Positions 12,269 to 53,718 of a DNA stretch of 64,000 nt are shown piece by piece. The position numbers and the translations under genes are program-made. How positions within the stretch are numbered: position 1 is the first letter of the stretch; every line of letters begins with the position of its first letter. This stretch comes from Eledone cirrhosa. Its lineage: Eukaryota. The stretch is from the NCBI GenBank assembly GCA_964016885.1, contig OZ024759.1, positions 32,922,001 through 32,986,000 of the forward strand, written 5' to 3'. Under the pieces are notes generated by a model that did no database searches, was not told where the DNA came from, and saw only the letters and a list, made by a program, of their open reading frames with translations.

Positions 12269-12694
12269 ATAACGGCGATGAATTAGTTTTGCGAGGTTTT
12301 TGATATGAAATCGTGTGTCGAAATAAATATTGTTATATTTGGGGAGGGTCATATTGTTGTAATAACATTGCCAGAATTAATAACAGAACACATTCTGTTT
12401 GGTTGGTTTTCGCTTCTGTGTCTTTTATATCAGTTAATTTAATTCATTCGGTCCCCAATGTTGCCATTGACTGACCAACGGTCAAAAATACAGATGCAAT
12501 ATAGACACAAATACATATATATAGTCTAACAAAGTTCTTTCGTTGCATATCTGCAACATCGTCAGTGGTGCTATTCTGTTTCCCCCCGTTGTATTGTATG
12601 CTTACGCCATCTTTATTTAGTCTGTTTAGTGTGTTCTGTTATTAATTCTGGCAATATTATTACACAAATATGACCCTCCCCAAGTATAACAATA
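12269..12694 (-). mobile_element. Family A Penelope-like pLTR remnant with 64-bp inverted arm and ORF-start tail
   Basis: Inverted repeat 12328-12391 / 12631-12694; minus strand has AAGATGGCGT (12604-12613), a hammerhead core and ATG at 12352 reading [28 protein letters not shown] into (TA)n; second copy at 32137-32324. Confidence 0.8.
12528..12569 (-). ncRNA. Minimal type I hammerhead motif (family A)
   Basis: ACCA-CTGACGA-T-GTTGCA-gata-TGCAAC-GAAA-GAAC-TT-TGTT; perfect 6-bp stem II, stem I 3/4 paired. Confidence 0.75.
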
Positions 12695-13011
12695 TATATA
12701 TATATATATATATATATATATATATATATATATGTCGAATACACGAATTTTCTTGTAAATTGCATTTCTCAGTCTTTCATTTTACAGAGAAATACCTATA
12801 TTGAGCATGCTTGCATGTCTCTCTACAGAAAATATATAAAAATATCTCCACCTCTACGCAGTTTCCTCTACACTGTATTTATGCAAATATGAATTTATCA
12901 TATATGTATATGTATACATATATGTGTGCGCGTATTTGACTTTATGTAGGGACACGCAGTACAATTTATATATATACACTCGCATATATACACACCCGTA
13001 TATATACTTGC

Positions 13012-13232
13012 GTGAAGGCGTGTGGCTGAGTGGTTAGAGAATTGGATTCGCAATCGTAAGGTTGTGAGTTCGATTCCTGGACCAGGCGATGCGTTATGTC
13101 TTTGAGCAAGACACTTTATTTCACGTTGCTCCTTCTACCTGGAGTTGCGACCGATAGATAGTATTAGCAATTGGAAAGACCAACGGAAACATTGTTCCCT
13201 CGGTCCGATTTGACGAAAGTCGATCGTCTTCC
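13012..13232 (+). mobile_element. tRNA-derived SINE with CORE-like central motif and 13-bp TSD
   Basis: A box TGGCTGAGTGG (13023-13033), B box GAGTTCGATTCC (13066-13077), then TGTCTTTGAGCAAGACACTTT; flanked by TATATATACTTGC at 12999-13011 and 13233-13245. Confidence 0.85.
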
Positions 13233-13847
13233 TATATATACTTGCATGTATACACTCGCGTGTTTATATTTCTTTAATGCGTGAATAAGGAAACCTTTAC
13301 TTGTGTACTACCTTTTTTTACACTAGTTCTACGTTTAAACACGATATTAATATTTATATAGCACACATTCTATATACATGTCTGATAAAATGCTGTAAAA
13401 CGCAGCATTAGCACTATGACAAGATGGCGACCAATAGAACCTTACCAGACATGGTGGCTGAATGTTTCCGTGATCGTATTGAACTGAACCGAAATCCTAA
13501 AACGCTGCCATTTACATATTCATATCACAGCTATCAACGTTTTGACATTTCCTCAAACAGGAATATTTTTTTTCATATATCTTTCCTCACCATATCCCGC
13601 CTACTATCATCACCATCATCACCATCACCACCATCATCATCTCCATCATCATCGTCATCATCATCAATACCACTATCACCGTCATTATCTCCAACACCGC
13701 CATCACCATCATCATCATCATCCTCACCATCACCATCATCAATACCACCATAAACACCACAACCACCACCACCACCACCATTACCGCTATCATCATACCG
13801 CCACCACCACAACTGTCACCATCACTAGCACCAGCACCATCATTACC

Positions 13848-14012
13848 ATCATGCTTTGCAGCAAAGAGTTACGGCCCTTTATATTCTGAGTTCAAATCAC
13901 GCCGAGGTTAACTTTGCCTTTCATCCTTACGGGGTCGATAAAATAAAGTACCAGTAATGCACTGGGTTAATTGCTGGCCTTGTGCCGAAAGTAGAAACAA
14001 TTATTATTATTA
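13848..14012 (+). mobile_element. Meta-domain-like tRNA SINE, 5' truncated
   Basis: B box GAGTTCAAATC, central GCCTTTCATCCTTACGGGGTCGATAAAATAAAGTACCAG, 3' end GTAGAAACA(ATT)n; about 10 copies in window. Confidence 0.85.
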
Positions 14013-14619
14013 TTACTATACCAATTTTCTCCGCCATTTGTTCATCTGCTTTACAGTCGTTTCTTTCTCTCATCTTCTATACTTATTATCTTCCTCATCA
14101 TCTCTTCCTCTTCTCCCTTGCTCTCCGTCTTTCTCTTTTTCTTTTCCTCCTTCATACTCACACACACAACCACACACATATATATAGACACAGACACACA
14201 CACGCACGCGCGCACACACACGCACGCGCGCACACACACACACACACACACACACACAAACACAAACACACACACAAACACAAACACACACACACAGATA
14301 CCTAAATAACATCACACCTTCCACAAACTCTACCTCGCTCTCCATACTCTCTCTCTCTATCTATCTATCTATCTCTGTCTCTTTATCTTTAAATCTATTG
14401 AAATGAAAATTTGGATTTACGCAGAATTTTAAGTCTCTTGTGATTGGAAGTTCATATGCGATTTGCATGCTGGGAAGGACACAAACTGTATAGAAATATA
14501 ATGGAATTTTCTGTGACAGTTTTATTGGTTAACACTTGCAATTAACCTCTCTGTTAAAGGAGTCAGGGAAAACTTGGGGAAATATTATTAAATATTAGTT
14601 TCTTATCGAAACATACAAC

Positions 14620-51678: not shown

Positions 51679-51849
51679 AACGTTCACGTTCTCTTCAATG
51701 AAAATGATTGCAGAGAAAGGCAGATGTTGTCCGTTTTAATGAGTTGTTGGCAGAATTACAGCAGCAGCAGCAGATACAGTACTTGCAATAGTTGTAACAG
51801 TAATACAAGTTGTAGTATTGGTATTAGAATTATTATTATTATTAATATT

Positions 51850-52100
51850 AATAACTGTTTCTACTTTTGGCACAAGGCCAGCAATTACCCCAGTGCATTA
51901 CTGGTACTTCATTTTATCGACTTTATTTTAAGGATGAAAGGCAAAGTTAACCTCGGCGGGATTTGAACTCAGAACGTAAAGGGACGTAACTGTGCTGCAA
52001 TGTATGGCGTCCGACTATCTACCGATACTGCCAATCCACCGCGCAACCAGTAATGCACTGGGTAATTGCTGGCCTTGTGCCTAAAGTAGAAACAATTATT
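51850..52100. mobile_element. Full minus-strand Meta-like SINE (51850-52042) abutting a plus-strand 3' fragment (52046-52100)
   Basis: Similarity to 30742-30933; the two 3' ends form an inverted repeat. Confidence 0.9.
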
Positions 52101-52799
52101 AATAGTAATAATGATAGTACTACTACTACTTGTACTACTAGTAGTACAAGTAGTAGTAAAACCGGAAATAAAGAGATAAATACTAGCTATACACTATTTT
52201 TTCGTTTGCTGAAAATAATTTCAATTCATTTTACATTCCATATTAGTAGAGAGAGAGGGAGAGAGATAGAGAGAAAGAGAGAGAGCATTTGAGAGAGACA
52301 GAGAGTGGTGGGAGGAAGGAGACAAACTTAAATAGCAAGACGGCGAGACAGACAAATAGACAAACGGACAAAATATAAGACTGAATGAAAGATAGACAGA
52401 AAAAAAATGAATACAATTTGTTGGTAGTGTGAGACAAAAAAGAACAAACGAATACAAAAGCAAAAGAACAACAAAAACAAACAGATAAAATAAGAAAAAG
52501 CATATATAAGTCACAAAATATGAAAAAAGCATATATACGTCACAATAGAGAACGTTCATTAAGACGAGTAAAGAATTGTTACAAGTCAGCTGAATAGAGA
52601 AGACAGAAACTATAAGCTATATCATGTCTGGTCTTAGTAGATGATATATACATATGAATCTAATAAACCTTTATTTGTCTGCCTCTCTGTTTTGTTTCCG
52701 TATAAATTTGCACTATATATTTATATATAACTAGCTTACATTTCTAATAATATATATATATATATATATATATAAAACCCCACTTTCTAATAAATATAT

Positions 52800-53028
52800 A
52801 AAACCTCACTTTCTAATATATATATATATTAGAAAGTGAGGTTTTTTACGAAATGAAAAATAACCGAGGTGTCCTACACGAGTGAAAGTATAAGGAAAAA
52901 AGATGAAATCTAAAATGCAACTGGAGTCTTTTTAAAAAAAAATATATATTAATTTGGTTGCTTTATCGGTTTCGCAGTTCTTCTGCTTTTCAAAAGTAGA
53001 GTTGAGATGGAGGGTTTGTGTTTTTTCT
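52800..53028 (-). mobile_element. Family E element with degenerate hammerhead (52961-52996) and terminal palindrome
   Basis: Minus strand CTT-TTGAAAA-GCAG-aagaa-CTGC-GAAA-CCGA-TA-AAG; AAAACCTCACTTTCTAA(TA)nTTAGAAAGTGAGGTTTT palindrome at 52800-52845. Confidence 0.6.
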
Positions 53029-53182
53029 CACACACACACACACAGACACACACACACACACACACACACACACACACACACACACACACACATCTATATA
53101 TATATATATATATATATATATATATATATATATATATATATATATATATGTATATATATATATATATTTGTATATATATATA

Positions 53183-53718
53183 TATTGTTATACTTTGGGA
53201 GGGTCATGTTGCCAATAAGAAACACACGCACCAGTTGCTTTCACTTCAATTTATTATAATACATTTATAAATTTCCGGTTGGTTGGTTGGTTCCACAACC
53301 AGATGGTTGTTTATATATTGTCAAAGTTCTTTCGTCACACATTCTGTGACCTCTTCAGTGACTGGGGATTCTTTTCTTTGTTTTTTGTGCCTCTTTGTGT
53401 CACACACAGAAACAAGATGGCGTTGGACAGAACAAAGGAGAGGCACAAAAAACAAAGAAAAGAATCCCCAGTCACTGAAGAGGTTACAGAATGTGTGACG
53501 AAATATTTTGACAATATATAAACAACGATCTGGTTGTGGAACCAACCAACCAACCGGAAATTTATAAATTCCTAAATTTATAAATTTATTATAATAAAAT
53601 GAAAGCAACTGGTGCGTGTGTTTCTTATTGGCAACATGACCCTCCCAAAGTATAACAATATCGGTTTCAACACACGTTTTCAGATAAAGAATCTTGCTAA
53701 ACAAATTCAGAAACTAAA
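53183..53718. mobile_element. Family B head-to-head fold-back (~210-220 bp arms, ~58-nt tail) with two outward-facing hammerheads
   Basis: 53183-53394 is an inverted copy of 53439-53660; ATG at 53636 reads [26 protein letters not shown] into (TA)n. Confidence 0.88.
53320..53362 (-). ncRNA. Intact-looking minimal type I hammerhead (family B)
   Basis: GTCA-CTGAAGA-G-GTCACA-gaatg-TGTGAC-GAAA-GAAC-TT-TGAC; perfect 4-bp stem I and 6-bp stem II; degenerate partner on + at 53471-53512. Confidence 0.82.

Follow-up and report, generated by a model that had tools for sequence, protein, structure and literature searches.

Insertions of Penelope-like elements (PLEs) have been described as including an inverted, 5'-truncated copy, with a tail of 30-40 bp that is often present at one end only and a bias towards (TA)n; the same account names the formation of the inverted repeats and of the one-sided tail as open (PMC8557442). 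In the PLE Pen2a_Av, the repeat spans 12 codons, or 22 with the tail, which one of the inverted repeats may carry or lack (PMC3846280). Here we consider 64,000 nt of Eledone cirrhosa DNA (assembly GCA_964016885.1, contig OZ024759.1, positions 32,922,001 to 32,986,000 of the forward strand; hereafter the window), in which several families of short, two-armed repeats sit between (TA)n runs. In three of these families (A, B, and C), each of the seven two-armed copies consists of one arm stopping at an internal site and a partner arm whose outer end lies 56-78 nt beyond that site, this extra stretch being the tail. The layout itself is of the PLE kind already described, here in unnamed families. 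What is new, and offers a modest lead on how such copies form, is TA microhomology, two copies whose arms do not overlap, and four copies whose arms end 9 nt or less from each other.

Biochemical data are available for Poseidon of Anolis carolinensis (PAc), which in vitro nicks and extends both strands, is predicted to act as a dimer, and uses two internal start sites of its reverse transcriptase (RT), located inside the 5' end of the open reading frame (ORF), that delimit the tail (PMC11167929). The sections of the main text of that paper available to us do not discuss inverted copies, and its three supplementary text files, when searched, gave no matches. As in PAc, the A and B tails in the window are bounded by two sites in the ORF 5' end and the target is AT-rich; the copies of the window differ in that 3-5 nt of TA microhomology are found here at the internal site, and in that the two arms mostly lie on different sites.

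The endonuclease-bearing (EN+) PLEs described in PMC8557442 and PMC3846280 share with the copies of the window 5'-truncated head-to-head copies, a single-ended tail, palindromic junctions, a hammerhead ribozyme within the repeat, a repeat terminus inside the first ORF codons, and an AT-rich or (TA)n target. Codons 9 and 28, where the A and B ends lie, are paralleled by codons 12 and 22 of Pen2a_Av (PMC3846280). The tail, described as 30-40 nt in EN+ PLEs, measures 41-91 nt here, and the window holds only relics of 50-530 nt, with no RT or endonuclease found and with target duplications that are unreadable in (TA)n. Short, hammerhead-bearing PLE termini without an ORF have also been reported as non-LTR (long terminal repeat) retrozymes derived from PLE ends; these form tandem arrays, whereas dispersed head-to-head pairs or single arms are seen here (bioRxiv 10.64898/2026.07.22.740005).

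Outer ends, tails, and fold points

The initial annotation had proposed that in families A and B the inverted arm always stops at one internal site while the other runs about 57 nt further, and that family C does likewise with a tail end 78 nt further. Its coordinates were reproduced to within 1-2 nt, and tail lengths of 56 nt (A), 57 nt (B), and 77-78 nt (C) bear out this layout. In copy A12, a tail-bearing arm on the minus strand (12270-12625), with a hammerhead motif, the ORF start, and the 56-nt tail, faces a tailless arm on the plus strand (12626-12694) whose terminus is the internal site. In B53, the tailless arm (53182-53398, minus strand) contains a full minimal hammerhead motif (core at 53358), and the tail-bearing arm (53399-53719, plus strand) contains a hammerhead core at 53475, an ATG at 53636, the internal site at 53661, and the tail end at 53719. 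These two tailless arms terminate in ...AACAATA, at 12694 and 53183. Two further copies are less regular: the tailless arm of A32 (32135-32212, minus strand; tail-bearing arm 32213-32323, plus strand) extends further inward than its partner and stops, at 32137, 6 nt before the usual site at a different TATA, while B48 (48713-48770) comprises an 8-nt inverted stub at 48714, of which ~4-5 nt are informative and which is compatible with the A/B internal site, and a non-overlapping arm made of tail only.

The family C copies are C18 (18152-18362), with a tail arm at 18152-18296 (minus strand) and a tailless arm at 18297-18362 (plus strand) around a 2-nt centre; C19 (19277-19383), with 44 nt of tail (minus strand) and a non-overlapping 60-nt tailless arm (plus strand); and C26 (26323-26441), with a tail arm at 26323-26421 (minus strand) and a 20-nt tailless arm (plus strand) around a 1-nt centre. 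Their tailless arms have a common terminus in 3/3 cases (18362, 19383, and ~26441). Tail ends also coincide between copies, in 2/2 for A, 3/3 for B, and 3/3 for C, even though each arm holds 9-31 TA dinucleotides. As for "always", it applies to all seven two-armed A-C copies, with A32 being 6 nt short and B48 a stub, and does not extend to B20 (20378-20720, plus strand; hammerhead core at 20479, ATG at 20637), a single tail-bearing arm with TA runs on both sides and no recognisable inverted partner over 20378-20719, nor, in all likelihood, to a copy of another family, H.

A scan of the window for inverted repeats returned 32 pairs. Once TA-run-centred, low-complexity, satellite, and SINE-like (short interspersed nuclear element) pairs, as well as inner pieces of B53, had been set aside, there remained the five overlapping A-C copies, the copies E, F, and G, which the initial annotation does not name, and the copy H. 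Adding C19 and B48, with their non-overlapping arms, brings the two-armed copies to 11. E (11800-12218) has 161-nt arms, 98% alike, around a 9-nt centre, a left tail of ~90 nt, and a full hammerhead motif at 12118. F (53940-54362) has 190-nt arms, 99.5% alike, a 3-nt centre, a hammerhead-like core near 54168, and a likely tail of ~41-48 nt that terminates in a decayed TA run. G (31497-31711) has 57-nt arms, a 28-nt centre, and a left tail of ~78 nt whose side begins with a short CA run. The tails of E and G are assigned to the elements on a shared tail motif alone, and that of F on one copy. With these assignments, the tail is on one arm only in 10 of the 11 copies (p=0.006 against even-odds site choice at each end), or in 9/10 without the B48 stub (p=0.011), and tail lengths over the 10 copies range from 41 to 91 nt. 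The one-sided-tail rule is thus strong but not absolute.

The eleventh copy, H (43105-43299), pairs a long arm (43105-43240, minus strand) bearing a hammerhead-like core with a 57-nt arm, and its two outer ends, at 43107-43297, are identical. Since its arms carry the motif of the C and G tails at a like distance (49-52 nt) from the end, with uncorrected pairwise p values of 0.03-0.04, H is likely a tail/tail copy. H had been considered as a MITE-like (miniature inverted-repeat transposable element) control, a use that was dropped once the tail motif and spacing shared with C and G emerged. The tails of C, E, G, and H (e.g., 31545-31570 and 11865-11885) have in common a short, hairpin-capable motif pair just inside the tail; hairpin folding inside tails reaches significance in G only (z of -3.4, as against -1.6 in E, -1.3 and -0.3 in C, and no hairpin in A or B) and is given no weight here. 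C26 and H also have a five-residue word in common at equal distance from the tail end.

In contrast to the outer ends, fold points vary freely, as the initial annotation had stated: no two copies have the same one. It had named scattered outer ends and a common fold point as observations that would speak against it; the outer ends are sharp and the folds are not shared. Relative to the internal site, the inner ends of the two arms lie at about -312/-64 in A12, -52/-80 in A32, -255/-224 in B53, -69/-64 in C18, and about -20/-20 in C26. Centres measure 1 nt in C26, 2 nt in C18, 3 nt in F, 9 nt in E, 24-44 nt in A32, G, and B53, and 237 nt in A12. Arms overlap in 9/11 copies; C19 and B48 show no overlap and hence are not fold-backs. 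In L1 twin priming, one RNA serves both target strands as template, the second primer site is variable, and the arms do not overlap. C19 and B48 show this non-overlapping inverted layout, whereas the window otherwise differs from L1 in its two fixed sites, its mostly overlapping inverted duplications, and its lack of poly(A).

Reads and contigs from four runs were aligned to the tail arm of B53: contig sets X1 and X4, and restriction-site-associated DNA (RAD) read sets X18 and X19. X1, possibly obtained from the same sample as the window, does not count as independent of it. Family B is abundant (139,566 of 12.5 million X18 records, a figure inflated by the library). Among the 24 loose-end rows listed, out of 1089, at least 157 contigs of X1 switch from B-arm sequence to TA repeat at 53661, the internal site. 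Strand-changing joints number four among the 15 joint rows listed, out of 82, at four distinct positions, each supported by 1-4 read starts or one contig; one of them (53629/53684) has the non-overlapping layout.

Marks of Penelope-like elements

A strict type-I minimal hammerhead descriptor gave four full matches in the window, in the left arm of B53, in E, in the second copy of a family D, and at 33774, versus 0.015 per shuffle and at most one in any of 200 shuffles. Recognisable, partly decayed motifs are present in A, F, B20, and the right arm of B53, with none in the C and G arms present. The family A motif (12528-12569, minus strand; 6-bp stem II, extra nucleotide after the core) fails the strict descriptor through one stem I mismatch, and between A and B the changes in stem II are paired. 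The motifs in the arms are oriented in sense towards the outer end. A long stem II combined with a short stem I, one additional base following position 9, and a stem III that is palindromic characterise metazoan PLE hammerheads (PMC4209133); the motifs predicted here, which fall below the Rfam gathering score, match these traits and appear to be of the PLE type. Rfam returned no match at the gathering score for the window, and the best 150 of 782 rows ranked by E-value are microRNA models on TA runs or palindromes.

The A/B end region additionally contains the start of an ORF, a 28-codon frame from an ATG (12269-12352, minus strand, in family A) with a ratio of nonsynonymous to synonymous substitution rates (dN/dS) of 0.13 and with 13/21 differences falling on third codon positions (Fisher p=0.0003); both alternative frames contain stops. 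In this frame, shown for A and B and not for C, E, F, G, or H, the internal site is codon 9 and the tail end codon 28. The A/B peptide gave 20 protein matches, of which eight are short, relic-like fragments. Seven of these eight short unnamed proteins align to the peptide up to about four codons from the tail end and have nothing in common beyond, as would be expected of relics ending at the tail end. The 12 long proteins were rejected as a parent ORF: they match only a short repeated word, and the three that were scanned have bacterial-type domains. A search for the DNA pattern in metagenome contigs gave no matches, and the ORFs of 39000-48000 are mostly microsatellite translations.

The head-to-head layout with 5'-truncated inverted copies, the one-ended tail, the bias for AT-rich or microsatellite targets, the hammerheads in sense with the ORF, and the ORF start, within whose 5' end both repeat and tail terminate in A and B, together make up the known PLE footprint. 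The head-to-head repeats of the window are thus, very probably and as judged from their sequence, 5'-truncated ends of several PLE families. The initial annotation had overlooked that they are PLE relics whose one-sided tail is already described. MITE or foldback elements have terminal inverted repeats that match at the two ends, a state found in H alone, the outer ends of the other 10/11 copies differing by the tail; features of L1 twin priming are likewise lacking, as there is no poly(A), the internal site is fixed, and arms overlap in most copies. Within PLEs, the predicted hammerheads argue against the Naiad clade, since Naiad is described as devoid of them (PMC8557442).

Several side observations relate to these marks. 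Family D consists of two single units, 31826-32067 (plus strand) and 50204-50445 (minus strand), 89% alike, with a minimal hammerhead and both ends in common, the former carrying 64 extra nt upstream of the motif; it possibly represents a retrozyme-like monomer. At 33699-33864, a single-arm relic between TA runs has a full minimal hammerhead (core 33774) like that of E. TA runs are also accompanied by hammerhead-like cores or by short hairpins at 45344-45429, 45919-45942, 48962-48985, and 59870-59896, which are probably further decayed PLE relics. Finally, an AT-rich stretch that lies ahead of the A/B ATG (53414-53635 and 12352-12610) and varies between subfamilies is bordered by splice-site-like words; it may be a 5' intron that has been retained, as it is in Penelope.

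Origins of the head-to-head copies

Both nicked strands of a TA run probably prime cDNA (complementary DNA) synthesis at one or the other of two fixed sites on the element RNA, which would give rise to head-to-head PLE ends. An RT-endonuclease would nick both strands of the (TA)n run, and each nicked strand would prime on the RNA, usually one at the tail-end site and the other at the internal site. Judging from the geometry, the top-strand-primed cDNA would read antisense from the left flank and the bottom-strand-primed one sense into the right flank; both would extend towards the RNA 5' end and be joined at their 3' ends, which would bring the two 5' ends of the element together at the centre. 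Two cDNAs stopping at nearly the same point would produce near-perfect palindromes, while stalling of one of them would produce long loops or non-overlapping arms. Several observations favour this dual priming. The internal site shows 3-5 nt of alternating TA in 5/5 independent families (p about 0.001), a microhomology that suits priming. C19 and B48, with non-overlapping arms, and A32, with its tailless arm reaching further in, are not attainable by one-step fold-back. C26 reveals no template hairpin at its fold on comparison with C18 and C19. The C arms cluster by copy and not by side, with 0-1 differences within a copy and 6-7 between copies in 20 nt. Lastly, ends are unlike in 10/11 copies, and the four strand-changing joints among the joint rows listed lie at distinct positions. 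The initial annotation had also put forward priming of both strands at two TA-microhomology sites; the head-to-head geometry, the microhomology at the internal site, and the PAc biochemistry agree with this proposal, and H is a likely exception to it.

The same annotation had the two cDNAs variably truncated; truncations are not independent in 4/10 copies, the inner ends of which lie at most 9 nt apart (p 0.002-0.10 if truncations were independent, the value varying with the assumed range). Inner ends within one copy are thus often coupled rather than independent, which suggests that the two RTs frequently reach the 5' end of a single RNA; two RTs on a single RNA would require offset starts. 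A more tentative proposal is that the PLE tail corresponds to the distance between both active sites of an RT dimer on one and the same RNA, which would force offset TA-microhomology starts and leave the tail on one arm. A shared broken RNA 5' end would then account for near-perfect palindromes that each have a fold of their own, and stalling of the trailing RT for copies resembling twin priming. A literature search found no paper that ties both-strand priming at two sites to the one-sided tail, although the 2005/2006 PLE reviews, outside this search, may hold such a model.

Several points weigh against dual priming of PLE ends. The searches turned up neither an RT nor a GIY-YIG gene (full-length relative in 0/73 candidates, no atlas match, no locus), and PLE membership therefore rests on non-coding marks. 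The counts of ends come from 11 copies in one window, and H likely has two tails. In PAc, the start site is alike for both strands and the RNA start has no homology to the cut DNA (PMC11167929). In the reads, one strand-changing joint (53661/53661, in X18 and X19) could represent either a head-to-head pair of tails or tailless ends placed back to back, and is a possible exception; depth loss across the internal site is 24% in X18, 27% in X19, 55% in X4, and 15% in X1, with no clean 50%, read depth being biased by the RAD library; and the tail end is not resolved, most alignments stopping at 53707, 12 nt before it. Fold-back would explain the four near-perfect palindromes just as well, and palindromes that subsequently lost their centre could yield non-overlapping and other shapes. 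Of note, inverted arms around a central TA run, i.e., a tail-to-tail or reverse arrangement, occur at 52800-52845 and 61206-61331, and may correspond to the 53661/53661 joint; they were kept out of the 11 copies together with a third TA-run-centred repeat at 5497-5622.

The alternative that survives best, while rather unlikely, is that the inverted arm of these PLE relics arose by self-priming or fold-back: one cDNA, or an antisense template, would fold over and be copied onto itself, and an endonuclease would resolve the product at the internal site so that one side keeps the tail, with central deletions later creating the loops and the non-overlapping copies. Published models include self-priming on an antisense template (PMC3846280) and a tail that arises through endonuclease-mediated resolution (PMC8557442), and centres of 9 nt or less in 4/10 copies, as well as tailless arms in A12 and B53 that are a subset of the tail arm, are as expected from it. 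However, C19, B48, and A32 would each require an additional deletion, the 1-nt centre of C26 cannot prime without a template hairpin, the TA microhomology of the internal site suits priming, and both tail boundaries are RT starts in vitro (PMC11167929).

It is improbable that the two strands prime from two separate RNAs with biased site choice, so that the one-sided tail would be an uncoupled, statistical tendency, a possibility that overlaps with dual priming as described above apart from coupling. The likely tail/tail state of H and the absence of a strand difference in the PAc start site (PMC11167929) speak for separate RNAs, as do, to a lesser degree, ~4 private changes in the tail arm of A12 compared to none in its partner (12327-12392 vs 12630-12694, with A32 as reference), a difference that is not significant and at most hints that the two arms can derive from different source copies. 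Yet 10/11 unlike ends exceed the 50% ceiling of independent equal choice (p=0.006), and inner ends this close in 4/10 copies are unlikely for independent truncation.

It is very improbable, and largely refuted, that one ancestral asymmetric hairpin of the MITE or foldback kind spread at the DNA level and that cruciform-driven deletions at its centre made the fold vary. TA-targeting MITEs exist, and the fixed outer ends, the TA target, and the perfect 57-nt arms of H would suit such an origin; against it stand the unlike ends of 10/11 copies, the hammerhead motifs and ORF start contained in the arms, the single-arm B20, the grouping of C arms by copy, and the recurrence of the same layout in several unrelated families with differing tail lengths. 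Assembly or library chimeras, i.e., fold-back reads at TA runs, in which the window is very rich, are hardly credible, given that the arms of a copy differ by 0.5-9%, that the ends are family-specific, that the internal-site junction occurs in 157 contigs of X1, and that opposite-strand joints occur in raw reads of two other samples.

Window context and significance

The window is animal-type DNA, possibly cephalopod-like to judge by a SINE-like repeat, and is rich in microsatellites, which dominate repeat and tandem scans. Also abundant is a SINE-like repeat of ~185 nt, which occurs as single, tandem, and inverted partial copies (13849-13999, 20988-21232, 30745-30933, 32723-32856, 37155-37599, 51844-52107, and 54957-55081), and minisatellite arrays with 23-nt and 26-nt units lie at 50567-51688 and 35884-36671.

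The two-armed copies are ordinary PLE debris, and annotating them as MITEs or microRNA hairpins would be wrong. The in vitro work on PAc provides two RT starts and extension of both strands, and the text of that paper, as far as available to us, draws no link to inverted copies (PMC11167929). With many very short two-armed copies per genome, the share of unlike ends, the offset of inner ends, and the microhomology can all be counted, and such counts would separate coupled dual priming, self-priming, and independent RNAs. If true, the single-RNA dimer rule would explain the one-sided tail, the inverted pseudo-LTRs, and the junction palindromes of PLEs, and would replace the antisense self-priming model.

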